Of a stretch of DNA of 64,000 nucleotides, positions 1 through 62,906 are shown piece by piece. The first letter of the stretch is position 1. Every line of letters starts with the position of its first letter. The stretch is from a virus, in IMG/VR virus record IMGVR_UViG_3300045988_091566. One strand, written 5' to 3'. Under the pieces are notes generated by a model, which was given only the letters and a program-made list of their open reading frames with translations, had not been told where the DNA came from and did no database searches. A program made the translations under genes and the position numbers.

Positions 1-349
1 TACTGAAATATTAAATTACTTAGACAATGAAAATAATTATAAATAATATCTTACCTCCAAAAGGTTTTAAATGTATAAATTTATTTGGTATATTATTCTG
101 TAGAAGAATACTAAATAAAATAGATATAAATCATGAAACTATACATACTAAATAGATGCAAGAATTGTTATATATATTCTTTTATTTATGGTATATAATA
201 GAATATTTAATTAGATTAATTATATATAGAGATACTAAATTAGCTTATAAAAATATCTCCTTTGAAAGAGAAGCTTATTAGAATTAGGGTGATTTAAATT
301 ATTTAAGTAATAGAAAACATTATAGTTGGTTTAGTTATATTAAGAAGAT

Positions 350-466
350 ATGAAACAAATGATTAAAACTGGAAAAGGATTACTATGGAAAATAGAACAC
401 CCAGTAGAAATAGCATATTCTGAGATTACTCTAGATTCTTTATTAAAACTATGTGAAAAAATATGA
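350..466 (+). CDS. small hypothetical protein (38 aa); its stop overlaps the next gene's start in an ATGA motif
   Basis: ATG at 350, TGA at 464-466, in frame 2. No in-frame stop. Overlaps the ATG at 463 of the downstream gene, which suggests translational coupling. Confidence 0.3.
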   Translation: MKQMIKTGKGLLWKIEHPVEIAYSEITLDSLLKLCEKI

Positions 467-1818: not shown

Positions 1819-1830
1819 ATTATTTAGAGA

Positions 1831-2046
1831 ATGAAATAGTTTTTAATTAAATTAATAACAGCGCATACTGGAATAAGTAGTAAAAGAGTGTGTGGAATAT
1901 TAGGATGGGTAATTAGTTTAGTTATTTTAATATACTGTTCTGTTAGTTAGATACAAGCTCCTGATATGATAGATACAGTTTTATATTGTTGTATGGGATT
2001 ACTAGGTATAGATAGCATAACTAGTATATGGAAAAATAAAGTATAA
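1831..2046 (+). CDS. small membrane protein (71 aa) with two predicted TM segments; holin-like candidate; contains 2 in-frame TAG
   Basis: Frame 1 reads M K * F L I K L I T A H T G I S S K R V C G I L G W V I S L V I L I Y C S V S * I Q A P D M I D T V L Y C C M G L L G I D S I T S I W K N K V, then TAA. There are two hydrophobic stretches. It sits in the late block. Confidence 0.35.
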
Positions 2047-2048
2047 AT

Positions 2049-2345
2049 ATGCCAAGAGGAATTAATGGAGAATATTATAATTATAGAATGCCCTTTGGAG
2101 GGAATTATTCGAATCCTTTAATATCTATATATAGTACAATAATACATTCTATAGATAATAAAAATCCTTATTTAATTACTAAAATTTACCAAACTCCAAC
2201 AAAATCAATACTATTTAATCCTAATATTATAGATGGAAAAGGAACAATGCATATTGATTGGAATAATTTAGATATATTTAAAAGTTTAACTCCAATAATA
2301 GGAAGTGCTTATGTTTATAAGAAGAGTAGGAACATTAATAGATGA
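2049..2345 (+). CDS. hypothetical protein (98 aa)
   Basis: ORF track, frame 3. The start context ATAAATATGCCAAGAG is repeated at 2642. Confidence 0.4.
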   Translation: MPRGINGEYYNYRMPFGGNYSNPLISIYSTIIHSIDNKNPYLITKIYQTPTKSILFNPNIIDGKGTMHIDWNNLDIFKSLTPIIGSAYVYKKSRNINR

Positions 2346-2658
2346 AAGTTTATATAATAGATGTATTGATTTAAGTAAAGATTATTTTGATAGAGATTAT
2401 TATAAATACCCTGAATTATAGCAATGGGCTGAAACTACTAGAAGGTATATTATTCAGGTATGGAGATTACAAAATCAATTAAAATACTATAAAGATAATA
2501 TAGACTTAAATAATTTTAAGAATTATAATCATTATAAATACGGAAAATCTCTTTTAGAGAGTTTTATAGGAAATGTTTTTGATTGGAAATTTATAGATTA
2601 TTCCAATAATGTAACTTATACCCATAATATAAAACATAAATATGCCAAGAGTAGATGA
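2311..2658 (+). CDS. hypothetical protein (about 115 aa) with one in-frame TAG; overlaps the previous ORF in another frame
   Basis: Frame 1 reads ATG 2311 ... TTA TAG CAA TGG GCT ... AGA TGA at 2656-2658. The translation MFIRRVGTLIDESLYNRCIDLSKDYFDRDYYKYPEL*QWAETTRRYIIQVWRLQNQLKYYKDN... looks protein-like. Confidence 0.35.
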
Positions 2659-3778
2659 AAGTAAACAAAATAAAGGAGTAAATAATAATACTCGGAATAA
2701 ATAGATGGCTATAGATATGGAATATTATAATAGATTAAATTATCCTAGGTTTAAATCTCCATATCTTGGTGCTAAATATTAGTAGAGAGTTATTCCAGTT
2801 AGAACTTTAAATGGGATACGAGATGTATTTGTAGATAATAGAGGAACTATAAAATAGGGAGGACATACTCATTCTAAATTATATAATTATAGTAATAAGA
2901 ATAGAACCCATCCTATAAAAGGAGCATATGCTAGAGAAGTAGATAGTTGGAATAATAATACTAGTCCTATTAAAGCATTAGTTAATTCAGGAATAGGTTA
3001 TGCTTTAGCTCCAGCTGCTTAGGCAGTATATGATTATACTAAAGGTGCTTTAGATATATCTAAGAATCCAACTAAAGCTAGTAATTATTTAGTAATGCTT
3101 CCTGTAATAGGATATGCTGTAAAAGCTCCTTTAAAACGTGGAGTAGAAGTAGCTATGAGAACTTCTAATGATGCAAATCCTATAGAAGACATAGTATATA
3201 ATATGCATAAAGCAAGTCCTAAAAAGCATGTTGGAGTATTATCTTATATATCAACTGGTGTAGGTTACAATACTTATGCTCCTGAAGCATATACTGGATT
3301 TTAGAAAGCAGCTAAAGGTAATGATATGATTGATGCTTATTTATATAATAAAACTATAAATCCTTCTTATGGAGTAAAGAAAATAAATGTAGATTATGGT
3401 CCACATGAGAATTATATAAGAAAGATATATCCATATAAAGATATTCCTGTATATGAAAATACTGAAACTTTAGATTTCTTTACTAAGAAACCTATGTAGA
3501 AAGCTTCTAATATAACTAATAAAACTCCTTGGAAAGGTGCTAATAATAATCTAGACTTTGGAGATAATGGAGTTGATGCTGCTGGACATTTAGTTTAGGA
3601 AGGAATATCTAATGGTAAGAAAGTATATAGAGCACAAGATATTTGGAAGTTTAATCCTGATGAATATAAGTAGAAATGGAGTTCATATGATTTAGACAGT
3701 AAAGCTGTATTAGGATTAAAAATATTAGATAAATTAGGAACTCCAGTAATAGTAAGAACACCATGGCTGTATAGGTAA
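2642..3778 (+). CDS. hypothetical late/structural protein (378 aa), TAG-recoded (about 9 in-frame TAG)
   Basis: Frame 2 is continuous from ATG 2642 to TAA 3776-3778 if TAG is read as sense. The ORF-track fragment 3095..3304 lies in the same frame. No in-frame TAA or TGA. Confidence 0.55.
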
Positions 3779-4899
3779 TTACTAACAATGATTCAATATA
3801 TGATTATTGGTATGAAGATGGGTAGTTGTATGGTAGAAGAAAATCAAATAAAGTCCCTTTTAAAATTAATTCTGATAAAGCTAATAGTATAATATTTCCA
3901 TAGGTTTAGGCTAAAGGAGTAGATCCTACTAAACCAACATCTACCTTAGTATACCATCCTGCAAAATATAAAGAAATGCCCACTGCTAAAAAAATATCTA
4001 TTCCTAAATAGGAAAAAGAAACAATATGGGAACGTGGTAAATAGTTGATTAATTTAGTAGGAAATGGATTAAGTAGAAAACTATAGTTATTTTTTGATTC
4101 AGAACCTGAGCATACTAGTAAAAGAATTAAAATTTCTAATAAAAAAATAACTAAAAATAAGAGGAGAGAAAATTTAGAAATAGAAATATCTCCAAATAGT
4201 TATACTATAAATGATACTACTAAAATAAACTCTAGAAGATATCGTATACCAGAATCCATAAATTTAACAAAGCATACTTTTGGTTATAGAAATAGAGGTG
4301 ATTATACTCCTATAAATAGTGTAGCAGCTCCTATTACTGCTTTTTCTAATTTCAAATCTAAAGAAAGCATATCTCCTAATAATTAGAATTATATAGGTAT
4401 AGATTCTATTGGTAAATTTGTTTTTGGTAAATATTCAGATATTCCTAATGGAAGTATGATTTCTCCAACATTTAAAAATACAGTTACTGGTTTTAAAACA
4501 GATTCTAAAGATAATGTATTATTCATGGAAAGTAATTCTAATGGTTCTAGAAAAAGTCCTATATTAAATGCTATAGTAAATGGTAAATCAGTAAATAACA
4601 GACTAAATTTCTTAGCTAATAATAATAGAACTGATGAATATGGTTCTATAGCTGGAGGAAGAATAATTATATAGGCGGGTAAAGAAGTTCGTTTAGTTTC
4701 CGGAAGTATAGATAATATTAGAGATGAGATAGAAGCTATGAAATCTAGAAACAATGTTAAAACAGTAGATTTATATACTTTAGATAATGGTACTTATCAT
4801 TCAGGATTAAGAACTTTTGATAAAATATTTACTAGAGATGACTTACTAAAATATGATGCTCAAAATACGGGCGGAGGAAATTTTTTATATATAAAATAA
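3763..4899 (+). CDS. hypothetical late/structural protein (378 aa), TAG-recoded (about 9 in-frame TAG)
   Basis: Frame 1 is continuous from ATG 3763 to TAA 4897-4899 with TAG as sense (MAVQVITNNDSIYDYWYEDG*LYGRRKSNKVPFK...). The ORF-track fragment 4456..4674 lies in the same frame. Confidence 0.55.
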
Positions 4900-5630: not shown

Positions 5631-6449
5631 TTAAGCATCCAATATTTCAAAGTAATAGTTTTTCCAAAGAATGCCAACATTTCTATTTAGAGTTGCTCTA
5701 CAAGTTTTCATTAATTTAGTAGTTACTAAATTATTATCCATTAACCATTGACAACATTCTGCTATACACCCAAATCTTCTTATTTCATTATGAGAAGAGT
5801 CATATTGTATAACATACTTTTGATTTTGTTTAGTTAATCCAGCTTCTGATAAAACTTGTTTTACTGCTTTAGGATTTAAATTATATCTATCAGCAACTTT
5901 CTTTTGATTTTTTAATTCTATATAAGAACTAATAATTAAATTCTTTAATTCATCAGAAAGTTCGTATTTAGATTCTACTTTTTGTTTATTTTTAGCACCA
6001 TAAGTAGTGGTTTGACTATGACAATTAGGACACAAAAATCTTAGATTTTCTATTCTATTATCATTATTTACACCATTAATATGGTCTAATTCTAGAGATA
6101 AAGTCTTACCCTGCCATTCTGTAATTCCACATATTGCACATGTATAAGGAAGTAATTTGTTTCTTAATATATAGCTTCTTAATATATTACGTGCGTGTTT
6201 TGAATTTTCACATAATAATTTAGAAGCATCTATTTCTTTCTTTTCATTACAGTCGACTATAGCTGATTTGCCTCTAAAATCTTTACCTGATAAATTTAAA
6301 TCTTGCATTCTTTGTTTAACTTGTGAATATCCCCAACTGTTTCCAACAGTAGTATATCCAAGTTTAAATAAAACTTCTGAGATATTCAGACTTGACTTAA
6401 CTAAGTCTGAAAACTCTTTATCCGTAAGTTTATAAATTTTATTTTCCAT
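5631..6449 (-). CDS. HNH homing endonuclease (272 aa)
   Basis: Contains the motif CAICGITEW...LELDHINGVNNDNRIENLRFLCPNCHSQ, a canonical HNH (His-Asn-His) signature, plus a C-terminal helix-turn-helix-like domain. Confidence 0.8.
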   Translation of the reverse strand: MENKIYKLTDKEFSDLVKSSLNISEVLFKLGYTTVGNSWGYSQVKQRMQDLNLSGKDFRGKSAIVDCNEKKEIDASKLLCENSKHARNILRSYILRNKLLPYTCAICGITEWQGKTLSLELDHINGVNNDNRIENLRFLCPNCHSQTTTYGAKNKQKVESKYELSDELKNLIISSYIELKNQKKVADRYNLNPKAVKQVLSEAGLTKQNQKYVIQYDSSHNEIRRFGCIAECCQWLMDNNLVTTKLMKTCRATLNRNVGILWKNYYFEILDA

Positions 6450-6508: not shown

Positions 6509-6721
6509 TTATAGATAACTACTAATACTAAAAGGATTTGTAGTAGAAGTAGTTTTATTATTACTAGTGTTTATTGCAATAAACCCATTATGTGGTATAT
6601 CTTTTAAAACCATATTGTCTATAGTTAATTTAGGTCCATTAATAATATTTACTAGTTCTATTAATTGAGATACTGTAAGATTAGGAACTATCTTATTAAT
6701 TTTTTGTAATGTTTCTATCAT
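6509..6721 (-). CDS. hypothetical protein (70 aa)
   Basis: ORF track. Confidence 0.35.
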   Translation of the reverse strand: MIETLQKINKIVPNLTVSQLIELVNIINGPKLTIDNMVLKDIPHNGFIAINTSNNKTTSTTNPFSISSYL

Positions 6722-6905
6722 TTAAAAAATCAACTATGTGTTTAAATTCTTGTTTATATTTTTTATATTTAGAATTATCTAAATTAGAAGAAAAATCTTC
6801 TAAAGATATATCTGAGATAATTCCAAATATTAGACAAGCATTGTTAAATGTTTCATCATCTAATTTACTACAATATTCTTCAAATTCATCTACCTTTTTA
6901 GTCAT
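6696..6905 (-). CDS. hypothetical protein (69 aa)
   Basis: ORF track. Confidence 0.35.
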   Translation of the reverse strand: MTKKVDEFEEYCSKLDDETFNNACLIFGIISDISLEDFSSNLDNSKYKKYKQEFKHIVDFLNDRNITKN

Positions 6906-7115
6906 GGTTATATGAATTACATTATCAATAACCTATAAATTTATATTATACTAATCAGGAAGGTCTTTAATACTTTGTATTAGTTGTTCTTTATTCATTT
7001 AATATTTCTTTTTGATTACACGAGTAATATAGTCGAGGTAGAGAATATTAAAAGTTAATTTTTGTAAAAGTTAATATTTTAAGAAATTAAAATTAAAATT
7101 TTAAAAATCCAATTA

Positions 7116-7595
7116 CTAAATAAACTTATACTCAATTATATTTTTTATAATTTGAGTTCTATCAGATATTTTACCTTTAAAAAAGTATTCAGGATTTAAA
7201 TAGTAAACAGCTTTATATCTAGAATCTTTTAATAACATCTTTTTCTTTACTAAAGAAGTAATAGTATTACGTATAGTTCCAGCAGCTAAGTTAGTTTTAA
7301 TTTTAATAGTATCTCTAAGTTCTTCATCTAAAGAAATCTTATTTCCTGGAAGTGCCCTATCTTTATCTTCATAATAATTAGAAGTATACCATAAAACAGC
7401 TAATACATTAGACTCTGCTTTAGATAACTTATAAAATTCTTCATTATCTCTTAAATATATCTGGCAGAATTGTTCAGCACTAACAGTTTTAATAGTTTTA
7501 ACTTCAGCTGATAATATCTCTCCACCCACTCCAACTTTAATTGACTCTATTTGTTTCATATTAACATTTGTTTTAATTAAAATTAATTTATTCAT
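7116..7595 (-). CDS. hypothetical protein (159 aa), possible DNA-binding regulator
   Basis: ORF track. It is the first gene of the minus-strand unit and lies next to the divergent promoter region. Confidence 0.45.
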   Translation of the reverse strand: MNKLILIKTNVNMKQIESIKVGVGGEILSAEVKTIKTVSAEQFCQIYLRDNEEFYKLSKAESNVLAVLWYTSNYYEDKDRALPGNKISLDEELRDTIKIKTNLAAGTIRNTITSLVKKKMLLKDSRYKAVYYLNPEYFFKGKISDRTQIIKNIIEYKFI

Positions 7596-8528: not shown

Positions 8529-8771
8529 ATGTTTAAGACATTTTATGGATTAGCATTTAAACATTATTTCATTAACTCTGAAACATTAGAACTTTATCGT
8601 AATAAATATATTTCAAATATTGTTTATGGTTGGTTTTTAATTGTCTCGGTTGATGGAGGAGCTACATGGGAAGAAGTGAAACATGTTAGTAGTGGAATCT
8701 TGGAAATAAGATATAAAAACTATCTTATTGGATTAATTTCCGATGTTGAGGAATCTAAAGAGATAAAGTAG
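8529..8771 (+). CDS. hypothetical protein (80 aa)
   Basis: ORF track. Confidence 0.35.
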   Translation: MFKTFYGLAFKHYFINSETLELYRNKYISNIVYGWFLIVSVDGGATWEEVKHVSSGILEIRYKNYLIGLISDVEESKEIK

Positions 8772-9131
8772 GGGAGCAGACTAACTCCCAAAACTCAATC
8801 TCCAATTTCCAACAAATCTCAAATATTCACTACAAATTCATATCTAAAATCACTTTTAAACCATATTACAAATTCAATATTTATCACAAAATACAACACT
8901 TTATTATTTTATTTTAAATATTGAGTTAAACTAAAATCAAAACAACACAAATAAAAATAAACAAATGTTTTGTTTAATGACTTTTAAGGTTGAAATCCCT
9001 GTCTAAAGTTTACTTTAGACAAAATCCTATATCATAGAGCATACCTCAACGTGGTTTATAGGTCTTAAAACTAAAGTGCTTAATATTCATTTAAAAACCT
9101 CGCGATAGTATAAGGTAAATCGTATAAAGTT
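8772..9131 (+). other. strand-biased A/C-rich non-coding region (nearly G-free for about 200 nt) with a GTCTAAAGT-TTAC-TTTAGAC hairpin
   Basis: No ORFs in any frame. Low-complexity CA-rich repeats (CAAAACTCAATCTCCAATTTCCAACAAATCTCAAAT...). Palindrome at about 9001-9022. Confidence 0.3.
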
Positions 9132-12215: not shown

Positions 12216-12677
12216 ATGATAAATGTATTTCAAAATGAGAAGGAATATACAATTTCTGTGACTATTCCTATTAAAAAAGTAAATTTCTCTGAAACTCCAT
12301 CAAAAAGAGATTTCAAGAAGTTTGCAGAAGAAGTATTTGAGGCTTATACTAATATTATAGTAGAAGCTTTGGAAGCTCGAATGAATGCTTGTGTTAATGG
12401 TCTTATTAAGCATTCAGATGATGTAAAGTATTGTGATAGTAAATATATTACATACACTAGAAAATCTGGTGGAGAACATACTTTCTCTTATAATGCTTAT
12501 GATACTATGCAAAGATTAGTTAAAAAAATTCAGCAATATAAGTTGGGTGAATTAACTAAGTCTGAACTCAAACAGATTGCTAAAGCTCTTTATTGGGTTG
12601 AAGATAAATCAGATATTGGAAAATATACATTCCAGGACTTAATTGATGTAATCGATGAATACCGAGAGTTTAAATAA
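12216..12677 (+). CDS. hypothetical protein (153 aa)
   Basis: ORF track. Confidence 0.45.
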   Translation: MINVFQNEKEYTISVTIPIKKVNFSETPSKRDFKKFAEEVFEAYTNIIVEALEARMNACVNGLIKHSDDVKYCDSKYITYTRKSGGEHTFSYNAYDTMQRLVKKIQQYKLGELTKSELKQIAKALYWVEDKSDIGKYTFQDLIDVIDEYREFK

Positions 12678-13029
12678 AAAAATTGTATCAGGTTGTGAGA
12701 GTCTTGCCGGTAAAGCTCTCACAATAGATCATGATGCTAGAACTTATCACATTGGTGATAGAGTAATTCCATTTTCTTCTTGTGTTATTAAAGAAGGTAA
12801 AATTTATTACTTGACACCAATGTGTAAAGTTCTTGTTGATATGGGTTTTAAAGGCGTAGCAGATTTTACCTCTAATACAGTTATTTGTACTAGTTTTGAT
12901 AATTGTAATCGCAATATTAAAACTGTAGGACTTGTAACTATCGACGACAGAGTCTTTATTAAGATTACTCTTAATTCAGAATTTCCAATGTATGAAGGTT
13001 ACGAATCTTTAAGAAGTGAAGTTTATTAG
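12655..13029 (+). CDS. hypothetical protein (124 aa); ends TAG followed immediately by TAA
   Basis: ORF track. The terminal codons are TAT TAG TAA. Confidence 0.4.
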   Translation: MNTESLNKKIVSGCESLAGKALTIDHDARTYHIGDRVIPFSSCVIKEGKIYYLTPMCKVLVDMGFKGVADFTSNTVICTSFDNCNRNIKTVGLVTIDDRVFIKITLNSEFPMYEGYESLRSEVY

Positions 13030-15716: not shown

Positions 15717-15796
15717 GCGGAGTTAGCTTAATGGCTAGAGCACCTTACTTCCACAATTCATGAGAGGTTATATTGGTTCGAATCCTTTACTCCGTA
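15717..15796 (+). tRNA. atypical tRNA-like gene (80 nt); anticodon arm not canonical, isotype undetermined
   Basis: Acceptor GCGGAGT/ACTCCGT and D arm GCTT-AATGGCTA-GAGC are clear, and it contains GGTTCGAATCC. Positions 26-52 form only a stem (ACCTT/GAGGT) around a 17-nt loop. The T stem is weak. Confidence 0.4.
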
Positions 15797-16227: not shown

Positions 16228-16311
16228 ACGGTAGTAGCTCAGTGGTTAGAGCATCTCTTTTTATAATAGGTCATTTCGAGAAGGTCATTGGTTCGAATCC
16301 TTTCTACCGTA
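16228..16311 (+). tRNA. atypical tRNA-like gene (84 nt); anticodon arm not canonical, isotype undetermined
   Basis: Acceptor ACGGTAG/CTACCGT and D arm GCTC-AGTGGTTA-GAGC are clear. The region ending ATTGGTTCGAATCCTTT is identical to the corresponding region of the 15717 gene. The middle 34 nt fold only as a TCTC/GAGA stem around a 20-nt loop. Confidence 0.4.
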
Positions 16312-16419: not shown

Positions 16420-16489
16420 GGAGATATAGCTCAGAAGGTCAGAGCACGGTGAAAATCCCGAGGTTGTGGTTCAATTCCACGTATCTCCA
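16420..16489 (+). tRNA. atypical tRNA-like gene (70 nt); no canonical anticodon stem found
   Basis: Acceptor GGAGATA/TATCTCC, D arm GCTC-AGAAGGTCA-GAGC, T arm TGTGG-TTCAATT-CCACG. The 19 nt in between (ACGGTGAAAATCCCGAGGT) do not form a 5/7/5 arm. Confidence 0.35.
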
Positions 16490-28584: not shown

Positions 28585-29097
28585 AGAGTTCTAAATTAGA
28601 ACTCTTTTAAGTATGGGGCATTCGTGGTTTTGATTGTATAGGAGATAAGAAGCACAGCAAAGACAGTTGGAAAGACAACAAAACAATAAATGCTAGAGTT
28701 ATCAATATGACTTCTGTTTCTTACGCTATTGCAGCCTAAGAAACCGAGCAGCACTTGCTTAGGAACAGAAAGGTGCACTATTTTCCATTTCTTTTAAGTT
28801 CTCTGTATACTTTAGGAACAGAGTGGTGGAAGTTGACAGTATATTAATCCTGTCAACCCTAACAGACAAGGACAGTCTTTAAAACCTATGCTGTAAGAAC
28901 GTTTTGATGCAAATATGCAAGACTGGAGTTTAATTTCGGACTCGGTATAGAGTGATTTATACAATAATTAATCGGATGAATTCAGGGAACGCTAAAAATA
29001 ATGCTTAGCTAGAACTAACATTATTCATGCCAATCCTGAGCTAAGCATATAGTACACTATATGAAAGTGCAGAGACTACTGGAGAGATTTAGTTCTC
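28585..29097. other. about 510-nt GC-elevated non-coding region immediately 3' of the minus-strand HNH gene; multiple hairpins; candidate structured RNA or intron-like element
   Basis: No credible ORF. Minus-strand hairpins GTTGACAG..CTGTCAAC, CCTAAG..CTTAGG and GCTTAGCT..AGCTAAGC. Confidence 0.3.
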
Positions 29098-29727
29098 TTA
29101 ATTACCAGCTTGAGCGTCCGACCCTTCATTAGAAGGTGATGATATAGTCCACTCCTCATCGAAAGATGAGGTATAGGAAGATATTAGTTTTAAAAACTTT
29201 TTAGTATCTAAATCAGACATTTCAGATTTCATAAAATTTATTGGAGTAGATATAAATTGTACATTTCCTTTGATATAGCCTTTAGAAGAATCTATCCTAT
29301 CAAGAGAGGCTCTGTAAATAAAAGGAATTTTTTTTAGATTTCCATAAGTAGGGAGAATAAGGTCTAGTCCTGTGTAAGGACATTTACCATTTTGTTTTTC
29401 CCATACTTCTTTTAAATATTCTAAATCTATATCAACTTCCTTAAATCTTTTTTTAGCATTTCTAAGGGAATATCTAAAAGGTGTATATTCATCTTCATGA
29501 TTATTACATATATTTAATAGGTGTTCTCTTTGTTTATCTGAAATTGGTCTGCCAGCTCTACTTTTATTATTAAATTTAGCTGCACATGATCTAGAACAAA
29601 AATTATGTCTTCCTAATCTAACATTTCTTTTGTACTCGGATTCAGGTTTCTGAAATTCCTTACCACAACAATCACAAGTGATTGTAACTAACTTTCTACC
29701 AATACAATACTTTTTTAATTCTGTCAT
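29098..29727 (-). CDS. HNH homing endonuclease (HNH_3-like; 209 aa)
   Basis: N-terminal Cys-rich region CDCCGKEF..CSRSCAAKF. C-terminal NGKCPYTGLDL...SLDRIDSSKGYIKGNVQFIS, matching the LDRIDNxKGY HNH_3-type signature. Confidence 0.75.
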   Translation of the reverse strand: MTELKKYCIGRKLVTITCDCCGKEFQKPESEYKRNVRLGRHNFCSRSCAAKFNNKSRAGRPISDKQREHLLNICNNHEDEYTPFRYSLRNAKKRFKEVDIDLEYLKEVWEKQNGKCPYTGLDLILPTYGNLKKIPFIYRASLDRIDSSKGYIKGNVQFISTPINFMKSEMSDLDTKKFLKLISSYTSSFDEEWTISSPSNEGSDAQAGN

Positions 29728-30009
29728 AGATTTAAATTTTAACTATACAATTATAGTTTAGTATTGTGGAATTGCAAAGTTAAGAAATGTTAATAGGCGA
29801 CTCTCCAATGCTCCACTAGTTCATAGAACTGTTTTTTATTATTTGTTTTTAATCCCTGGGCTATTATTATAGTTCAGGGATTTTTGTTTAATTTTAACTG
29901 TTAATTATGGAAGAATATATTAATAACTCTATTAAAATAATTGATGATATGTTACACAACATAGACATTCTTATAAATTTATTAAAGTAATTATTAAACA
30001 TTTATCAAA

Positions 30010-36933: not shown

Positions 36934-37272
36934 ATGAAAATAACTATTGATACAGACAATTTAGAAACATTAAAGTATAAAACTGAAGATGTTCCTATTT
37001 TAATGAAGACTTTCCAACAATTAATAAATAAATTAATGTATGAAGTAATAGGGGATTATTATTCTGTAGACAATGTTCCTGAAGATACTCCAAAATGGGT
37101 AAAAGAAGAACTACTTAATGTAGGAAAAACCTGTTATATGGATGGGCATATGAATAAAGAATATGTCTTTAAAGGTATTCAAGAAACATTTGAGGATTAT
37201 TATTATATATTAGAAGACAATAATAAAAAAATTTCTTATTCTTCATGCGTTGGAAAGATATCTTATAAATAA
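36934..37272 (+). CDS. hypothetical protein (112 aa)
   Basis: ORF track. Confidence 0.45.
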   Translation: MKITIDTDNLETLKYKTEDVPILMKTFQQLINKLMYEVIGDYYSVDNVPEDTPKWVKEELLNVGKTCYMDGHMNKEYVFKGIQETFEDYYYILEDNNKKISYSSCVGKISYK

Positions 37273-37503
37273 TGTAATGATATTTCATATAACATAAAAA
37301 GCTAAATCAGAGTAATTACCTGACTATGGGAGTTTTACTGTTCTCCTGCTTTTTATGTAAATTTTAAACAGTAATTAAAAAAATAGTACAATATGAAGAA
37401 ATTCAAAGAATGCACCAGTGAAGAAATTAAATTAGCTATATCAAATAGCGAAAGTTTAAATTAGGTTTGTAAGTAGTTATTATGTACCAATAATACTTAC
37501 AAT

Positions 37504-38109
37504 ATGAATAAAATAAAAGATTTTATTAAATCAAATAATTTAAGTATAAAACATTTTAAAACTAGATATTCTAAGGAATCATACGATAAAAATCCTAAAG
37601 TATGTAAATACTGTGGAAAAATTATTCCTTATGAAAAACGAGTTAATGATTTTTGTAATCATTCTTGTGCAACTAGTTATAATAATATTGGAGTAGTACG
37701 CAATAAACCATCTTTACCTACTTATTCACTCTGTTTAAACTGTGGAAAAGAAATTACTAAAGGAAATAAATATTGTAATAATACATGTAAAGCAGAATAT
37801 GAAAGAAAGGAGTATATTAAAAGATGGAAAGCAGGGAAAGAATCAGGTATTATTGGAAAAGATAAAATAGCTACAGCAGTAAAAATATATTTAAGAGAAA
37901 AATTTAATAATTCTTGCCAAAAATGTGGGTGGAATTAGGTAAATTATTTCACAGGTTTAGTACCATTGCAAATTCATCATATTGATGGGGACTGTTTAAA
38001 TAATAAAGAATCTAACCTTTAGTTATTATGTCCTAATTGTCATGCTTTAACAGAAAATTTTGGTTCTAGAAATAAAAATTGTACTAGAATTGATAAAAGA
38101 ATACGGTAA
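37504..38109 (+). CDS. HNH homing endonuclease with N-terminal Zn-ribbon repeats; contains 2 in-frame TAG codons (37939, 38020). Either TAG-recoded or a pseudogene
   Basis: The ORF-track segment 37504..37938 ends at TAG. The same frame continues VNYFTGLVPLQIHHIDGDCLNNKESNL*LLCPNCHALTEN... to TAA 38107-38109. The HNH motif (HHID...N...CPNCH) lies downstream of the first TAG. Confidence 0.55.
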
Positions 38110-38508
38110 TGATAAAGCTCTAGAATACTAGTTACAGGAGCAACGTAACTTATAGGGTGCCTCTCAACGATGCATACTCGCCTATTAGGTGTCGTAGAAC
38201 CTACGAACTGGAATGATTCGATGGTTTTTTGCATTCCTACAGAATCCTAAATAATAAAAATAGAGACCATGTCTCTAACAGGGGTAATTTACCTGGGATT
38301 CTTAATTTTTTAAACTCTCCTCCTAGATATTTTATAAGTTAAACTTTAAATTTGATTTATTATGATGAAAATTTTAAAAAGAACTTTAAAAGCATTTAAG
38401 AAGGGTTGGATTTGGTATGCTAATCAGTATTGTAGATTATACATGCCTCCAATTATTTAATCTTATTATTTAATTTGTAAGTACCAAAGGGGTACTTACT
38501 GATGTTGA

Positions 38509-38534
38509 GTCGGGCAATAAGCTCGACTTTTTTT
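38509..38534 (+). terminator. intrinsic terminator
   Basis: GAGTCGGGC-AATAA-GCTCGAC hairpin followed by T7. The 9-bp hairpin GTAAGTACC/GGTACTTAC lies just upstream. Confidence 0.55.
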
Positions 38535-38565
38535 GTTTGTATACATTTTAAAAATTTTATATATT

Positions 38566-44409: not shown

Positions 44410-44741
44410 TGAAACTTTTAGATAGATTAATTTTAATATTAATTTTTATTACTATTATAGGAGCTACTATCTTTTTATATAAAGGGTTTAAATCTACTAC
44501 TGTAATACCTACAGATACCTTAGAAAGAAAAATAGACTCATTAAATAGTGAGAAAAATTCTATTAAAGTTGATATCAATAAGTGTGATACTGCTATCTAC
44601 TATAATAAAACTATCTATGTTAAAAAGAAGGACAATATTATTAAGCAGTCTCCTGATAGCGACATGCAGTTTTTCACAAACTACGTTCAAGAAGTCGGGA
44701 GAAAACTTCTTATTGACACCGTATCAATTAAAAATAACTAA
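44409..44741 (+). CDS. hypothetical membrane-anchored protein (110 aa)
   Basis: N-terminal TM segment LILILIFITIIGATIFL. Confidence 0.4.
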   Translation: MKLLDRLILILIFITIIGATIFLYKGFKSTTVIPTDTLERKIDSLNSEKNSIKVDINKCDTAIYYNKTIYVKKKDNIIKQSPDSDMQFFTNYVQEVGRKLLIDTVSIKNN

Positions 44742-45190
44742 TCTTATTTTTAATGAGCATAAATATTTACTAGTAAATGATAGTCTACAAAAAATTCAAA
44801 TAAATAACTATAAATCTTTAGTAAATACACTGGATAGTACACTAATACATAAAGATTATCAAATAAAGGTTCAATCTGATAAAAATAATGAATTGTATAT
44901 ACAAAATAAAAAATTATCAAAATTGAATTATTTATTTGGAGGTATAAGTATATTATCTATAATATGTGCTCTAATACATTAGATACTTACATAAAGGATA
45001 CTGACGGTAAGAAATTTAAATTTCCAGATAGAGATTGTAAGAATTGTAAAAGATATAAATGCTTAGTAAATATGGACATGCTTAAATGTAATTTTGCTAA
45101 GTATGGATGCAGAAATTATAATCCTAGATAACTAAAATTACTAAAAATTGATAAATAATATTTACGCCTTGAAAAAGGATTACCATATTA

Positions 45191-45545: not shown

Positions 45546-46532
45546 ATGACAACAGTTTTAGGTGATAAACTCAATCAAGCTTTTGAAGCTAAGAATAATG
45601 ATGTAGAAACATTTCTCTGGAAAGGTTCCAGAAAAATTGTAGATGGTGAACGTGTTCAGTCTTCCATGAAAATGGTAGATATGACTGAAGAAGAATTACG
45701 TAAAGCATATAAACATTGTGAATCAATGCTTTATAGTGACAACTATGAAAATCCTGGACGACGAGTTTTGTTGGAACAGATTGAAGATCAAAGAACTCGC
45801 TGTAATGCTGAGTTGTTCTTAATTTGGCTATTGTACCCAGGTGAAGGTAGTACTAGACAAGGTATTGTAAGAACTAGTTTCTTTAATATGCTCAATCAGC
45901 AGATTACTGCTCAGGCAGAACAGTTTGCTAAAGAGAATGCAGAAAGTGGTGAGGGCGAGACAAATGTTAGTGCTATTGCAGAGACTCTCTTTAAAGAGTG
46001 GACTCTTAATGATATTATGAATAGTGATGAAGATTCATTTACCATGTTTGCTTCATTACCATTATATATCGTTAGAGAAGCTTGTTTATCTGCTTTAGGT
46101 AAATGTGTCCGTAAACACATTACTCTTACATTTATTACTGAGCTTGGATTGTGGTTTACACGTTCTGAGTTATTAGAATTAAATAAAAAAGACGAGAATG
46201 GTCGTTTAGTAGATAGAATTAAGCAAGTTGCTGAACTTCTAAATATTAAACTGAAAGACCCTAAGAATCCTGAAGACCGGAAAGGTCTTGTTTTAAAAAT
46301 TGATGATAGAAAAGGCTTAACTCTAAAAGAGTTTAGCGCAATGCTTACCTTCCGTAAGGATAAATATGATAAGCGTTATAATGATCTGACTAAAGTACAA
46401 TTGGAAACCTTAAGAGATAAAGTTTTACTGCATCTCGAAAATAAGGTTAGATGGCAAGCTTCAGAGTGGGAGAAGCGTATTAAACAAATCAAAGCAGTAG
46501 CTGATTACAATGGCTACAAACTCTCTGATTGA
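45546..46532 (+). CDS. hypothetical protein (328 aa), GC-elevated
   Basis: ORF track. Confidence 0.5.
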   Translation: MTTVLGDKLNQAFEAKNNDVETFLWKGSRKIVDGERVQSSMKMVDMTEEELRKAYKHCESMLYSDNYENPGRRVLLEQIEDQRTRCNAELFLIWLLYPGEGSTRQGIVRTSFFNMLNQQITAQAEQFAKENAESGEGETNVSAIAETLFKEWTLNDIMNSDEDSFTMFASLPLYIVREACLSALGKCVRKHITLTFITELGLWFTRSELLELNKKDENGRLVDRIKQVAELLNIKLKDPKNPEDRKGLVLKIDDRKGLTLKEFSAMLTFRKDKYDKRYNDLTKVQLETLRDKVLLHLENKVRWQASEWEKRIKQIKAVADYNGYKLSD

Positions 46533-46815
46533 AGGAGAACTATTTCATAAAATCACTAGAGATGAACGACAAGAAGAGTGTCGTAGAAAATGGATAAAAA
46601 ATCGTTGTGTAGGGACAATAGTTGCGTCTACTGGCTTTGGTACTGTAAAAGCGGGTCATATACCTGTTAATTACGATGCCGTTTCGATAGAGGAATCTTC
46701 GAAATTATTATCGAGCAAAATCGGTAGAAGCCCTATAGAGGGTAATACCGAGGTAATAGAAGAAATTAAAGAATCTTCTACACCGTACAGCATAGAGAAT
46801 GAAACTAATAAATAG
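46510..46815 (+). CDS. hypothetical protein (101 aa); possible degenerate N-terminal (motif I) fragment of the downstream SF2 helicase
   Basis: ASTGFGTVKAG resembles a degraded AxTGxGKT Walker A motif. A terminator-like hairpin follows. Confidence 0.35.
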   Translation: MATNSLIEGELFHKITRDERQEECRRKWIKNRCVGTIVASTGFGTVKAGHIPVNYDAVSIEESSKLLSSKIGRSPIEGNTEVIEEIKESSTPYSIENETNK

Positions 46816-51246: not shown

Positions 51247-52017
51247 ATGAATTTAAATTTTGGTGGTCTTGGTGATATTAATCCTACAAGTAAGAAAGGT
51301 CTTCGTCCTTATGGAATTTATCTTGTTCAGTTAAAAAGTGTAGAAACTAAGGAAGGTCAAGGTAAACAAGACCCTAGTACAACTTGGAAATCTCTGGTAC
51401 TTCATTTTGAAGGAGAGCAAGGAACTTATCAAGAATCATTGTTTTATCCTAATGAAAGTTCTGCTAAAAGATATGAGGGTAAGAGAAAGGATTCTAAGGG
51501 TGTAGAATTCCCATATGTACTTCCTTCAGCATTTGAACAGCTTAAAGGTTTTATGCTGCATATTATAACAGTAGTAGGTGGTGATAAAGCTAAAGAATTG
51601 TTTATAACTAAAACTCCTGCTTGTAAGAGTACTGACCAATTCATGCAGCTTTTCCAGGCAGTATTAACTAAGCATTGTATGAATAAAAACTTTTATTTAA
51701 AGCTTAGCGGTCGTAAGGAAAAGAAAAAGGATGAAAAGGGAATCTCAAAGGAAACTGGCAATGTATTTGCTAAGATTCCTGATATTGGAGCTATTAATAG
51801 TGATGGACAGTTCTATATCCGTGATAATTTTGCTAGCTTAGAGGAAGATAAATTGTCATTCTTTAGTTATGAGATTAAGCAGAAAGAGGATATGGAGAAG
51901 CGTAAGCCTACTGCTCCTATGCCAGCAGCTGATTCAGAAGAGGCTAAATCTATTGACTCTACTGAAGGCAAGGAGGCTCAAGATGAAGACTTCGATGCTA
52001 TGCTGGCAGATATGTAG
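51247..52017 (+). CDS. putative ssDNA-binding protein (T7 gp2.5-like?) with an acidic C-terminal tail ending in an aromatic residue (256 aa)
   Basis: C-terminus EAQDEDFDAMLADM. Located in the replication module, upstream of the primase. Confidence 0.35.
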   Translation: MNLNFGGLGDINPTSKKGLRPYGIYLVQLKSVETKEGQGKQDPSTTWKSLVLHFEGEQGTYQESLFYPNESSAKRYEGKRKDSKGVEFPYVLPSAFEQLKGFMLHIITVVGGDKAKELFITKTPACKSTDQFMQLFQAVLTKHCMNKNFYLKLSGRKEKKKDEKGISKETGNVFAKIPDIGAINSDGQFYIRDNFASLEEDKLSFFSYEIKQKEDMEKRKPTAPMPAADSEEAKSIDSTEGKEAQDEDFDAMLADM

Positions 52018-52040: not shown

Positions 52041-53051
52041 ATGGAATTAGATTTTTCTTATAAACCAGATATTACTAAGGACTACTTACTTAAATATAAC
52101 ACAGAGGAAGCCTATATGGAGTATTATCTTGGCGTAAAAGTTTCAAAAAAATTAATTTGTAATCCTTTACGTAAAGATAAAAATCCTACGGCTTCCTTTT
52201 TTCGTAACTCTAAAGGAGAACTTATATTCCATGATTTTAATGGGAGCTTTTATGGAAACTTTATATCAGTAGTTATGACTAAATATGCTTGTAAATATCA
52301 TCAAGCATTAGATATTATAGCTAAAGATTTTGGCTTATTAAAAGGACAAAATAATTATCATTCTGTAATACAATCAAGCACTTCTTTTGTTAAAACAAAT
52401 GAGCCAGCAGATATACGAGTAGAAATAAAAGATTTCTCAGAAGATGAATTAAAATGGTGGGGTAAACAAGGAGTTTCTTTAGAATTACTAAATAAATATA
52501 AAGTATATTCTTGTCGTACTGTATTTTTAAATGGTAATATTCAAACTATAAAGACCAAAGATAACTTTATCTTCGGATATTATGGAGGAACAATGCAAGG
52601 TAAAGAATTGTGGAGAATTTATTATCCTAAACGTAAAGAATATAGATTTCTAACAAATTGGCCCTCTAAAAAGGTTCAGGGCTATAGTCAGTTACCTAAA
52701 AAAGGTAATTTATTAGTCATAACTAAAAGTATGAAAGATACTATGTGTTTAAGAGGTTTAGGTGTAACAGCCTGTGCTCCAAATAGTGAAACACAATGGT
52801 TATCTGAAAACATGTTAAATGATCTAAAAGAAAGATTTACTTATATAGTAACTTTTTATGATAATGATAGACCTGGAATGTTTAATATGGCTAAGATAAG
52901 AAAAAATCATCCAGAATTACTTTATTTCTTTATACCTCATAAATTCAAAGTAAAAGATATAAGTGATTTTTATAAAAAATATGGTCGACAGAATACTTTA
53001 AAATTTATAAAGTATTATATAAAAAAATTAAGTAACTATGTCAAAAAGTAA
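52041..53051 (+). CDS. DNA primase (DnaG/TOPRIM-like; 336 aa)
   Basis: Degenerate N-terminal Zn-binding region CNPLRKDKNPTASFFRN...FHDFNGSFYGNF. TOPRIM-like LLVITKSMKDTMCLRGLG (E...) and FYDNDRPG (DxD). Confidence 0.5.
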   Translation: MELDFSYKPDITKDYLLKYNTEEAYMEYYLGVKVSKKLICNPLRKDKNPTASFFRNSKGELIFHDFNGSFYGNFISVVMTKYACKYHQALDIIAKDFGLLKGQNNYHSVIQSSTSFVKTNEPADIRVEIKDFSEDELKWWGKQGVSLELLNKYKVYSCRTVFLNGNIQTIKTKDNFIFGYYGGTMQGKELWRIYYPKRKEYRFLTNWPSKKVQGYSQLPKKGNLLVITKSMKDTMCLRGLGVTACAPNSETQWLSENMLNDLKERFTYIVTFYDNDRPGMFNMAKIRKNHPELLYFFIPHKFKVKDISDFYKKYGRQNTLKFIKYYIKKLSNYVKK

Positions 53052-53097
53052 TTAGAATCTGAATACTGCTATTAGAATAACATATAAGAACGGCGAT

Positions 53098-53595
53098 GTG
53101 CACGATTATACATCTATAGAGGAATGCTCTGAGAAAACTAAAATAAGTCAAGCAGCTCTTAAAATTAGATGTAATAAATCTGGAAAAATGGCTGATGGCA
53201 CTTTATATGAATGGATAGATAGCCATACTAAGAAGAGTTATCAAGCTAAAAAATCTAGAAATAAAGGTCATAAATATGAATTAGATGTTATAAAGGAACT
53301 TACTGATTTAGGTTATAAAGGATTAGTTAGTTCTAGATCACAAAATCGTAATTTAGATAATGCAAAAATAGATATAGCAGAAACAGAGGATCATTTAAGT
53401 TGTTATGTTCAGTGTAAAGCCACAGCTAATATTCCAAACGTAGCAAAAATAAATGCTGAAGTTGGTTATACTGACAGACCTCTTGCTATTTTTTGGAAAA
53501 AACAAAATGTAACAACTGGATTAAAAGAATTTGTGATTATACCAAAAACTTATTTTTATAGTTTATTAGAGCATGACAAGGTTAACAACAAGTGA
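53098..53595 (+). CDS. hypothetical protein (165 aa)
   Basis: ORF track. Confidence 0.45.
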   Translation: MHDYTSIEECSEKTKISQAALKIRCNKSGKMADGTLYEWIDSHTKKSYQAKKSRNKGHKYELDVIKELTDLGYKGLVSSRSQNRNLDNAKIDIAETEDHLSCYVQCKATANIPNVAKINAEVGYTDRPLAIFWKKQNVTTGLKEFVIIPKTYFYSLLEHDKVNNK

Positions 53596-54613
53596 ATTTA
53601 TAAAATAGGCTAAAAATGCTCATGGTGATAAATATGACTATTCTAAGGTAATTTATAAAACAAAAAAAGATAAGGTTTGTATAATATGTCATAATAAAGA
53701 TGAGAATGGAATAGAGCATGGAGAATTTTGGTAGACTCCAGATCAACATTCTAGAGGACAAGGTTGCCCTAAATGTAAATTTGAAAAATTATCTAAAGAT
53801 AGGGCTGATACTAAAGAAACTTTTATTGAAAAAGCTAATAAAGTTCATAATAATAAATATAATTATGATAAAGTAGTTTATAAAAATAGATATTAGAAAG
53901 TTATTATAACTTGCCCTATTCATGGAGACTTTATTCAAGATCCTAATAATCATCTTAGTGGTAAAGGTTGTCCAATATGCGGAAGAATAAGTGCTGCTAA
54001 AACGCACACTATGTCTAACGATGAATATATAAGAAGAGTCCAAATTACTCATCCTGAATATGATTATTCTATTACTAATTATACAGGAATAAATAATTCA
54101 ATTCAATATATTTGTCCTAGTCATGGTGTAATAACTCAAAGTGCTCATGACCATTTATATAATCAAGCTGGATGCCCTAAATGTAATCAATCTCATGGCG
54201 AAAAAGCTATACTTCAATATCTTAAAAATAAAGATATTTGGGTAATTCCTCAATATGACATTCCTATAGATACTAATATTAATTATACCGGTAAAGCTTA
54301 TATAGATTTTTATTTACCTGAATATAATGTATTTATAGAATATAATGGAATACAACATTATACGCCTGTGAAACACTTTGGAGGTAAAATACAGTTTGAA
54401 AAACAAAGACTTAGAGATAATGCTATAAGAAAATATTGCTCTATAGAAAATATAAAACTTATTGAAATTCCTTGGAATATAAATTTAAAATTAATACCTG
54501 ATATTTTAGATTATTCTTTACAAAACTTAGATAAGCCTTCTATAGCATTTGTAGGAATGGATTTCTTCTATACTTTATTAGAATGTTATTCTAAAAGTAA
54601 TAATTTAATATGA
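53573..54613 (+). CDS. putative homing-type endonuclease: repeated CPxHG..GCPxC Zn-ribbon modules plus a C-terminal DUF559/Vsr-like PD-(D/E)xK nuclease domain; 3 in-frame TAG (53606, 53732, 53894)
   Basis: Frame 2 is continuous from ATG 53573 to 54613 if TAG is sense. The ORF-track piece 54011..54613 is in the same frame. Repeats KYDYSKV.YK...KV.IICP.HGEFW*TP..H..G.GCPKC. C-terminal IDFYLPEYNVFIEYNGIQHY. Paralog at 61575. Confidence 0.55.
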
Positions 54614-60509: not shown

Positions 60510-60739
60510 CTAATGAAATTACTAAAGATAACAAGACACTACTTATCTGCTATAAAAATTCATATCCCTATGGGCAAATATTATACAACGGGAGTAAGTG
60601 GATATATATTACTAGTGTAGATATAAATAAAGTTAATTATGCGGAAGATACTCCTCATAATTTAGTACAAAAATTATTAGATAAAGAAATTATTGATAAC
60701 ATAATGTTTTTCACATATAATGGAGAGAATGCCAACTGA
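60503..60739 (+). CDS. hypothetical protein (78 aa)
   Basis: ORF track. Confidence 0.4.
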   Translation: MVTNEITKDNKTLLICYKNSYPYGQILYNGSKWIYITSVDINKVNYAEDTPHNLVQKLLDKEIIDNIMFFTYNGENAN

Positions 60740-61514
60740 ATTTACTTTAGAAGAAGTATTAAAAGGAAAAGCTACTAGTATTAAGGGTAAAGATTATCTT
60801 CCTACTAGAGGATATATTGAGCCTTTCCTAGAAAGAGTTCAAAAATTAACTTCTGATATTAGAGTACATGTAAAATTACCTGATCAAATTACTTATAATA
60901 AAAATGGTGATATAGATACTGCTGATTTAACTTTTAATAGAGTATGGTTAGAAGCAGTATTACCAAATGAATATTCAGTAGATAATCATAAAGAAACTAT
61001 AAATATGTTATATGGATTAGATACTAGAAAACCTATAATAAAGTTTTTTAGAACAGGATTAAATATGGCATGTTTAAATATGTGTGTATTTAATCCTAGT
61101 TATATAAGAGTTTCTGAATTATCTCCTGATAAACCTGTGGATTATTCTCCTGTAAAAACTTTAGTAGAAGCTACTGACTCATTGGGAATTTTCCTTAAAA
61201 CTTTGAAAAATACTGAATTTAATACCTCAGAATCTAACATAAATATCAGTTTAGGATATTGGGTAAGACAAGCTATAACTGAATTTGAAGATAATGGTTT
61301 TGGTAAAATAAAGTTAGCTACTTCTGAAGTTATAGCTTCTTATAAACGTATGTTTGAAGATTCTAAATCTGATTATTATATAGGAATTAATGGAGAAGCT
61401 TCAATGTTTGATGTTTATAATAGTTTTACAGAAGGTATTTCAAATGATAATAATAAGGATATTATGAATAAATTTGAAAAATGTGTATTACTTAAAAAAA
61501 TTTTAAATTTGTAA
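60720..61514 (+). CDS. hypothetical protein (264 aa)
   Basis: ORF track. Confidence 0.5.
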   Translation: MERMPTEFTLEEVLKGKATSIKGKDYLPTRGYIEPFLERVQKLTSDIRVHVKLPDQITYNKNGDIDTADLTFNRVWLEAVLPNEYSVDNHKETINMLYGLDTRKPIIKFFRTGLNMACLNMCVFNPSYIRVSELSPDKPVDYSPVKTLVEATDSLGIFLKTLKNTEFNTSESNINISLGYWVRQAITEFEDNGFGKIKLATSEVIASYKRMFEDSKSDYYIGINGEASMFDVYNSFTEGISNDNNKDIMNKFEKCVLLKKILNL

Positions 61515-61574
61515 AAATTTATTTGCTTCTTGTACAAATCTATATATAGTCATCTTAACTAAATCATAATACAG

Positions 61575-62906
61575 ATGAATAAAGAATATTTTATTAAAAA
61601 AGCTCAAGAAATTCATGGAAATAAGTATGATTATTCCCTAGTAGAAGTTTCTAGATCAAAAGATAAAGTTAAGATAATATGTCCTATTCATGGAGTGTTT
61701 GTGCAAGAAGCAAATTCACATTTATAGGGACGAGGTTGTGCTATTTGTTCAGGTAAAAAATTTGATTTAGATACCTTTATACGAAAAGCAAATAAAATTT
61801 GGAATAATAAATATGATTATTCCAAAGTAGTCTATACGGGTACTAATAACAAAGTATGTATCATATGTCCTGAACATGGAGAATTTTGGCAAACAGTTAG
61901 TAATCATTTAAAAGGACAATGTGCTTGTAAGGAATGCCGAGGAAAAAGTAAAGATTTTAAAGTAATTAGATCCAAAGAGGATTTTGTAAAAGCTGCTAAT
62001 GAAAAGTATAATTATAAATTTGATTATTCAAAAGTAGATTTTAAAGGTAGTAGAGAAAAAGTTTGTATTATATGCCCTGAACATGGAGAATTTTGGTAGT
62101 TACCTTATCAGCATTTAAATTGTAAAAATGGATGTCCTAAATGTACTAATACTTTCAGATTTACTCAAGATGAATTTATTAAAGAATGTGAGAAAATTCA
62201 TCCCGAATATACTACAAATAAAACTGTTTATACTGGAATAACTAATTCAGTAATTTTAACTTGCCCAAAACATGGAGATTTTAGCATATTAGCATCAACT
62301 TTAATATACCATCATGGATATTGTCCAGATTGTGCTATAGAATCTTATACTTTAACTAAAGAAGATTTTATAAAAAAAGCTAGAGAAGTTCATGGTTGGA
62401 AATACGATTATAGTGAAGTTAATTATATAAATTATAAAACTCCAATTACTATCATTTGCCCAAAACATGGTAAATTTGAGCAATCACCAGGTAATCATTT
62501 AAAAGGGTGTAAATGCCCTGAATGTGCTAGAGAACAAATAGAGCCTAGTAAAGGAGAATTATTTATAAAAAATTTATTAAATAAATATCATTGTAAATAT
62601 AAATTTCAATATGAGATAAAGACTAAAGAAATAGCACGTAATTCTAATAAAATTATAGTAGATTTCATAGTAAAACATAATGATTGTATTTATATAATAG
62701 AATATAATGGAAAACAACATTATGAATTTATACCATTTTTTCATAATAGCCAAGAAGATTTTCAAAAACAAATTAGAAGAGATAATTTATTAAGAAAAAT
62801 ATGTAGTAAACATCCTGGAAAATTAGAATTGATAGAAATTCCTTATAATTATTCTAATTCTAAAATAATAGATACACTCTCTTTTTTAGATGAAACAAAA
62901 ATTTAA
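61575..62906 (+). CDS. paralog of the 53573 gene: Zn-ribbon-repeat plus DUF559-like endonuclease with 2 in-frame TAG (61725, 62097)
   Basis: Frame 3 is continuous from ATG 61575 to TAA 62904-62906 if TAG is sense. Repeats KYDYS.V.Y.....KV.IICPEHGEFW*LPYQHL...GCPKC. C-terminal IVDFIVKHNDCIYIIEYNGKQHY. Invisible in the ORF track. Confidence 0.55.

Follow-up and report, generated by a model that had tools for sequence, protein, structure and literature searches.

In phages, the reassignment of stop codons is considered to set the timing of lysis and other late functions. We analyzed a stretch of viral DNA of 64,000 nucleotides (nt), IMG/VR record IMGVR_UViG_3300045988_091566 (the whole stretch is hereafter called the window), in which three homing-endonuclease genes and a resident nuclease gene carry in-frame TAG codons amid genes of the standard genetic code. 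The former are an HNH gene and two genes with DUF723 repeats (genes A and B), and the latter encodes an Hjc-like enzyme.

Three kinds of described systems come close to this arrangement. CrAss-like and Lak phages (PMC9523058) and Zeta crAss-like phages (PMC12386605) use genetic code 15 (TAG to Gln), with recoded late and structural genes and replication genes in the standard code. In these phages, homing-endonuclease content varies between near-identical genomes, and the suppressor transfer RNA (tRNA) is often undetectable. The homing endonucleases I-TevI, I-TevII, I-TevIII, and SegB of T4, together with Aeh1 MobE, are encoded by open reading frames (ORFs) inside early or middle polycistronic transcripts and are translated late only; the block consists of RNA hairpins that sequester the ribosome-binding site, combined with late promoters (PMC2988022). 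Borges et al. (bioRxiv 10.1101/2021.08.26.457843) reported that, in Agate phages, an early gene contains a group I intron whose endonuclease is preferentially TGA-recoded, and proposed that this endonuclease is blocked until late, the endonuclease case being a one-sentence inference from codon statistics.

Nearly all of the co-oriented homing-endonuclease genes that we examined have recoded stop codons ahead of their catalytic motifs, whether TAG or TGA was the reassigned codon. We propose that the three endonuclease genes of the window encode amber-gated mobile nucleases, which would be made at full length once TAG is suppressed, and we give this reading a probability of about 65%.

HNH homing-endonuclease gene

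The free-standing HNH gene occupies 37393-38109 on the + strand and comprises 238 codons, including four in-frame TAGs read as glutamine (Gln). A preliminary description, made by a model from the letters of the window, had placed the start at 37504 and counted two TAGs; the ORF opens at ATG 37393, the 37 extra N-terminal codons are kept in the orthologs, and the TAGs are located at 37462, 37474, 37936, and 38020. With TAG translated as Gln, the product matched Pfam HNH (PF01844; 25.9 bits, cutoff 21.4) and PHROG 1271 (5.5e-25). The catalytic motif HHIDGD...NN...CPNCH (37975-38043, + strand) had been said to lie beyond the first TAG, and it is in fact located after three of them. Its His and Asn residues are flanked by two Cys pairs (CQKC...HHIDGD...NN...N-L-q-L-L-CPNCH, where q denotes TAG); the motif is invariant across seven homologs, as are its columns in alignment A2.

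Orthologs of the HNH gene were obtained from six IMG/VR phages with 48-94% identity, all of full length. The TAG of codon 24 (37462-37464, + strand) is also TAG in the orthologs L004, L005, and L006 and is found one alignment column upstream in L007 and L009, and that of codon 28 (37474-37476, + strand) is replaced by the Gln codon CAA in L005. Codon 182 (37936-37938, + strand; CGWN-q-V) is TAG in five orthologs of the TAG lineage and Gln in the second HNH gene of L008, a relative with a different recoding that is treated below. Codon 210 (38020-38022, + strand; NL-q-LLCPNCH) is matched by the Gln codon CAA or CAG in L009 and in each of the two L008 HNH genes, giving NLQLLCPNCH. Alternation of TAG with CAA and of TAG with TAT was observed in other columns of the alignment. 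The ratio of nonsynonymous to synonymous substitution rates (dN/dS) was 0.13-0.22 over the whole gene and 0.04-0.10, at dS of 0.4-1.5, over codons 182-238, which follow three TAGs and contain the catalytic motif. Peptides of the HNH protein that span a TAG read as Gln are predicted to be ...SESLNQVCK... and GWNQVNYFTGLVPLQIHHIDGDCLNNK.

The distribution of the gene was examined against MT835492.1, a human-gut phage record of 121.6 kb with approximately 95% identity to window positions 24569-64000. By blastn, MT835492 lacks the segment 36919-38109 (+ strand), which begins just past a tRNA-Ala gene, contains an ORF at 36934-37272 and the HNH gene, and ends at the HNH stop codon. In L007, an HNH variant with 59% identity is situated on the opposite side of the ORF 36934-37272, and the flanks are 98% identical. 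The HNH family sits within tRNA clusters in six of six phages. Downstream, a 450-nt stretch without ORFs (38110-38560) separates the HNH stop codon from the next gene; it is conserved in MT835492 and L007, ends with a terminator-like hairpin (38507-38529), and may encode an RNA.

DUF723 genes A and B

Gene A (53573-54613, + strand) contains TAGs at 53606, 53732, and 53894, and gene B (61575-62906, + strand), located just upstream of nrdD, contains TAGs at 61725 and 62097; these counts of three and two agree with those given previously. The label DUF559 attached to the two paralogs was not supported, as no Pfam DUF559 match was obtained at E<=0.1, and both consist of DUF723 repeats (PF05265; 63.4 bits for gene B and 34.9 bits for gene A, cutoff 20.9) and a PD-(D/E)XK-like domain. 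The latter, at the C-terminus, carries the motif D..E-Y-N-G-x-Q-H and showed weak Pfam matches to two nuclease-type families, DUF2726 (20 bits, cutoff 24.7) and PvuRts1I-like_N (16.5 bits). Gene A also matched PHROG 559 (3e-61).

It had been suggested that the TAGs be compared with conserved Gln columns, and the coincidence seen in the HNH gene was also found here. The bracketed position of the repeat HGxFx[Q] is Gln in 43 of 54 repeats from 16 distant homologs, and one TAG of each gene falls on it, namely TAG 53732 of gene A and the TAG in HGEFWq of gene B. Furthermore, SHLqGRGC of gene B reads SHLQGRGC in L014, an ortholog with 56% identity.

As compared with MT835492 by blastn, two regions are replaced in the window: 53267-54557 (+ strand), which comprises the diverged 3' part of the Hjc-like gene and gene A, and 61042-62906 (+ strand), which comprises the diverged C-terminal half of the gene 60720-61514 and gene B. 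These two resident gene ends (the 3' part in 53038-53595, the C-terminal half in 60720-61514) were strongly diverged only in genomes carrying the endonuclease genes, as expected of a co-conversion tract or of a target rendered immune. The last 18 codons of gene A (MDFFYTLLECYSKSNNLI; 54557-54610, + strand) represent the original C-terminus of the Hjc-like protein fused in frame, identical to the C-terminus in MT835492, and the same arrangement was found in L077 and L202. This remnant of the Hjc-like C-terminus at the end of the DUF723 ORFs (...DFFY.LL..Y.K.N.I*) places the insertion approximately 19 codons ahead of the stop codon of the Hjc-like gene. Gene A is missing from 16 of the 19 IMG/VR relatives compared at this locus, and other DUF723 variants located beside the Hjc-like gene contain 11 (L076/L077), 8 (L202), and 7 (L201) TAGs.

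With a background rate of TAA and TGA of 0.06 per codon over all six frames, the chance of a frame free of TAA and TGA was calculated to be 3e-3 for the HNH gene, 1e-3 for gene A, and 2e-5 for gene B. The genes retain their full length down to 48-59% identity with the motifs intact. On the basis of these sequence comparisons, TAG is a sense codon for Gln in the three genes. All three are missing from MT835492 despite its 95% identity, and they are therefore live homing-endonuclease genes rather than pseudogenes. Judged in this way, they are functional, mobile, and free-standing, and their products are predicted to cleave, site-specifically, the allele lacking the gene; PDB sequence searches with the three nucleases gave no significant match. 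These endonuclease genes circulate within a group of closely related phages of the gut in whose late genes TAG is read as Gln.

Resident Hjc-like nuclease gene

The gene at 53038-53595 (+ strand), which overlaps the 3' end of the primase gene, encodes a resident nuclease with a DNA-binding module resembling that of I-HmuI and a putative Hjc-like PD-(D/E)XK domain. Its codon 6 (53053-53055) is TAG; hence, the endonuclease genes are not the only TAG-interrupted genes of the standard-code region, as had been stated. This TAG is conserved in MT835492 and in 19 of 19 IMG/VR relatives at the locus. Subsequently, the DNA sequences of 15 orthologs (including L196-L209) were compared; the family to which they belong shows 41-81% identity to the window-type protein. 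Thirteen of the 15 have a single Gln-type codon among codons 1-8, and this codon is always TAG (at codon 3-7), with variation in the neighboring residues and their number. Outside the N-terminus, the orthologs contain 54 CAA, 14 CAG, and 1 TAG. This sole internal TAG (codon 38) belongs to L207, in which the N-terminal one has been lost; the sister L208 retains TAG at the N-terminus and carries CAA at the internal site. One ortholog, L206, is devoid of TAG and begins with MRKK-ELNES, as compared with MNKKKqELNTS in L205, indicating that the upstream ATG is the true start of the gene. The N-terminus predicted with TAG read as Gln is MSKSNQNLNTAIR.

The single N-terminal TAG behaves unlike a neutral synonym for Gln and resembles an amber gate that has been selected for on a nuclease within the replication operon. 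It constitutes the strongest evidence for gating, and it lies outside the part of the window that first drew attention.

Enrichment of TAG and recurrence in relatives

In the first 4 kb of the window, the coverage by ORFs of at least 100 codons rose from 0.08 to 0.92 when TAG was treated as a sense codon, whereas the coverage elsewhere was barely altered. The end of a TAG-recoded late block (27-4899, + strand) was used as the reference for TAG usage: its seven genes contain 3, 15, 2, 0, 1, 9, and 9 TAGs, respectively, so that TAG makes up 39 of 60 Gln-type codons (65%) and 39 of 1599 codons in all. From about 5 kb on, the window reads as standard code, in agreement with the preliminary description, and the genes there include those for an ATPase, a DnaB-like helicase, a primase, an SbcD-like exonuclease, and NrdD.

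Homing-endonuclease genes on the + strand contain TAG in three of three cases, as compared with a single one among the other early genes, which number about 80 (Fisher, 4e-5). Among Gln-type codons, TAG accounts for 9 of 38 in the three endonuclease genes and for at most 1 of 336 in the other early genes (p = 4e-9). Thus, as in the case of Borges et al., the endonuclease genes lie in the early, standard-code region and are more recoded than their neighbors.

The same pattern was observed in relatives with other endonuclease families. The standard-code region of MT835492 has insertions of its own, namely a GIY-YIG gene with 4-5 TAGs in the tRNA cluster and a LAGLIDADG gene with one TAG in the P-loop of the ATPase. 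The latter (MT835492 4816-5972, locus L001) splits the ATPase gene exactly at the Walker-A (P-loop) motif, and no intron was detected at this insertion with Rfam at the gathering threshold. Furthermore, L008 (IMGVR_UViG_3300045988_162375) is a phage in which TGA is recoded to tryptophan (Trp), as its in-frame TGA codons fall on invariant Trp columns (IKR-TGA-K). Within its 12.7-kb locus, more than one in-frame TGA was found only in a GIY-YIG gene (five) and in the two HNH genes (three and four), all in a tRNA cluster; two other ORFs have a single TGA, located inside the last 10 codons.

Proposed gating and alternative explanations

The endonuclease genes are co-oriented with the runs of standard-code replication genes in which they reside, and hence would be transcribed with them. 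No + strand terminator was found by a terminator scan from the primase gene to 57712, and gene A overlaps the preceding gene; co-transcription with the replication genes is therefore probable. The first in-frame TAGs occur at codon 24 of the HNH gene, codon 12 of gene A, and codon 51 of gene B, before the catalytic motifs. Before suppression, ribosomes would halt at codons 6-51 (the Hjc-like gene included), yielding short peptides without activity. With amber suppression established, the full-length nucleases would be produced, and by analogy with published models this would occur after early-gene expression. The Hjc-like gene would represent the same device in its purest form, with one TAG fixed in the first seven codons. 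Since the in-frame TAGs stand among standard-code genes, the nucleases can probably be produced only after the code switch, and their translation would then be late only. Restriction to the suppressor-active phase is consistent with everything observed and is backed by the conserved TAG of the Hjc-like gene and by the TGA pattern of the TGA-recoded relative. The TAGs within the homing-endonuclease genes would in that case be selected and not merely tolerated. A wider proposal, which we advance tentatively and regard as somewhat doubtful, is that, in this phage family, the reassigned stop codon has been put to use as a dedicated translational gate, under selection, for enzymes that cut DNA, and that recoding acts as a code barrier limiting homing-endonuclease traffic to phages of the same code.

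Several points weigh against amber gating. Two nuclease genes on the minus strand have no TAG, and the sole TAG of a second LAGLIDADG gene in MT835492 is located at the very end of the ORF. The share of TAG among the Gln codons of the endonuclease genes ranges from 13 to 67%, and the first recoded codon shows no more than a trend toward the 5' end (combined p = 0.057). ARAGORN and Rfam detected no CUA-anticodon tRNA in the window, in MT835492 (121.6 kb), or in flanking loci including the 10 kb that precede the window start in a relative, a search that covers the genome in part. Neither Sigma-70 and terminator scans nor visual inspection of upstream regions revealed a late-promoter motif in common. 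The timing itself is deduced from gene content and the published model, and the TAGs of the endonuclease genes could build up neutrally in any gene needed only late.

This last point can be extended to a full explanation, in which the endonuclease genes have long resided in a TAG-recoded gene pool and are needed late or are weakly selected; CAG would therefore drift to TAG under AT pressure, and the TAGs would be signs of late or relaxed expression and not of selected timing. The scatter of the TAGs, the non-significant 5' bias, and the interchange of TAG with CAA and TAT between orthologs agree with it. CAG is scarce in the endonuclease genes (2 of 38) as in the late genes (3 of 60), as compared with 121 of 335 Gln-type codons in the early genes, and the L014 ortholog of gene B has no TAG, although L014 and L206 may derive from standard-code phages. 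However, the adjoining Hjc-like gene has a clearly non-neutral, position-specific TAG, and TAG gating would therefore be under selection in the same operon; in the HNH gene, the first TAG is retained, within one alignment column, down to 48% identity, and the same pattern has evolved with TGA. We consider such a neutral by-product rather unlikely, though it is the most serious competitor of amber gating. Suppression might also operate as soon as infection begins, for instance by an unrecognized tRNA made at once, and TAG would then carry no timing information and would be avoided by early genes for other reasons. The location of the tRNA cluster in the standard-code region would suit this possibility, as would the negative result for a CUA suppressor tRNA in the sequences searched. 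Yet TAG is excluded from about 88 early ORFs, whereas it makes up 65% of the Gln codons of late genes; early genes ending in TAG have a backup TAA or TGA 0-13 codons downstream, which fits a phase of TAG read-through; and a lone conserved TAG at codons 3-7 would be purposeless if TAG always meant Gln. Constitutive suppression is accordingly improbable.

The preliminary description had also considered that the genes are imported pseudogenes, and had named ordinary stop codons between independent small genes as the finding that would speak against recoding. The ORFs are indeed broken under code 11, and the GIY-YIG gene of MT835492 has no ATG start. The import part of the proposal agrees with the mobility of the genes, which are absent from MT835492 and have diverged flanks. 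Decay does not agree with the data, as dN/dS was 0.13-0.22 for the HNH gene and 0.04-0.25 across and past the TAGs, the catalytic motifs are intact and invariant, and the frames free of TAA and TGA extend far beyond chance. Splitting into small genes likewise fails, because the TAGs fall on Gln columns and no independent starts occur in the downstream segments. The Gln columns, the TAG/CAA swaps, and the low dN/dS past the TAGs therefore exclude both versions for practical purposes, and we attach almost no weight to them.

Other features of the window

The window is phage DNA, AT-rich with 29% GC. The layout of MT835492 comprises standard-code genes on the + strand at 1-63 kb, including PolA, and TAG-recoded structural genes on the minus strand at 64-121 kb. 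The capsid family includes 245 IMG/VR relatives; TAG recoding occurs in the clade of the window and in a few more, and the standard code prevails among relatives at 60% identity. Across the capsid-gene loci L081-L160 (58-99% identity), standard-code and TAG-recoded lineages occur within one family; recoding therefore originated inside this family, possibly more than once. The capsid columns are a weak test of TAG as Gln because only one of four TAG columns is Gln in the relatives.

Approximately 9 of 90 early genes terminate in TAG, for example 7116-7595 (minus strand), 12655-13029, 44617-44982, 46510-46815, and 51247-52017, and the backup stop codon mentioned above is directly adjacent in three of them. 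TAA is the chief stop codon of late genes. Four further candidates for TAG-containing genes (8529-8924, 20710-21282, 24353-24910, and 24954-25307) were rejected, since ordinary TAG stops or spurious extensions at the 5' end seem to account for them. The motif TTAAACA(C)(A)TT precedes the ATG of many early genes by about 5-15 nt, for example at 7999, 9936, 18814, 30010, and 31244.

The two minus-strand nuclease genes had both been described as HNH genes without TAG. Their lack of TAG was borne out (0 TAG among 17 Gln codons), and the gene at 5631-6449 matched Pfam HNH (26 bits); the ORF at 29098-29727 is endonuclease-VII-like (PHROGs 3322/1035, zf-FCS domain) and has no Pfam HNH match. Adjoining the former is the ORF 6696-6998 (minus strand; 100 codons) with two possible TAGs in its first 22 codons, although its start may lie downstream. 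The latter is contained, together with a compact group I intron (28915-29171, + strand; Rfam Intron_gpI, 85.9 bits), in an insertion at 28923-29810 that is absent from MT835492 by blastn. The surrounding region of about 28600-29900 is free of ORFs and shows a weak match to transfer-messenger RNA, with a reading frame ending in ...SYAIAA* that resembles a degradation tag and is split by the group I intron.

Four aberrant tRNA-like genes were found in the tRNA cluster, at 15717-15796, 16228-16311, 16420-16489, and 18368-18440. In two of them the 'anticodon loops' span 15-18 nt and the T arm, common to both, contains U:U mismatches; one has an anticodon stem of 3 bp, and one has a loop of 6 nt. 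The one at 16228, called tRNA-Stop(tta) by ARAGORN, is unlikely to be a suppressor, since its anticodon loop has indels among near-identical relatives and TAA is the main late stop codon.

Comparison with known systems

The present case would carry the logic of recoding as timing over to nucleases, namely selfish homing endonucleases of several families and a resident resolvase-like enzyme in the replication operon. The code-switch model has so far rested on codon statistics, and the single conserved N-terminal amber codon offers a handle that can be tested with a reporter. These findings also suggest that the genetic code of a phage shapes which selfish elements pass between relatives, and such genes will be broken or overlooked by annotation pipelines in which each genome is given a single code.

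The window matches the code-15 systems in that its late genes are densely interrupted by TAG aligned with Gln and in that a CUA suppressor tRNA was not found in the part of the genome covered. Endonuclease genes are not linked to recoding in PMC12386605 or PMC9523058, whereas such a link is proposed here. For the resident enzyme, the nearest known counterparts would be the archaeal and phage Hjc-type Holliday-junction resolvases (PDB 1ob8, 1gef).

As in T4 (PMC2988022), the endonuclease genes are located near nrd and replication genes or in a tRNA cluster, and some overlap the upstream ORF; the HNH family within tRNA clusters recalls SegB of T4 in particular. The proposed block differs, since T4 uses a hairpin and a late promoter, whereas here it would consist of a reassigned in-frame stop codon tied to the code switch. 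Promoter and terminator scans found no T4-like hairpin or late promoter at the endonuclease genes.

The case of Borges et al. is similar in that a homing-endonuclease gene in the early, standard-code part of a stop-recoded gut phage is preferentially recoded. It differs in that TGA and an intron-encoded gene are involved there, whereas TAG is recoded to Gln here in free-standing genes, with four endonuclease families across the window and its relatives, and in that a resident Hjc-like nuclease with a single conserved N-terminal TAG is added. The idea of gating is thus already published for a related case, and the present analysis extends it to TAG, to several free-standing families, and to a resident nuclease with one conserved gate codon.

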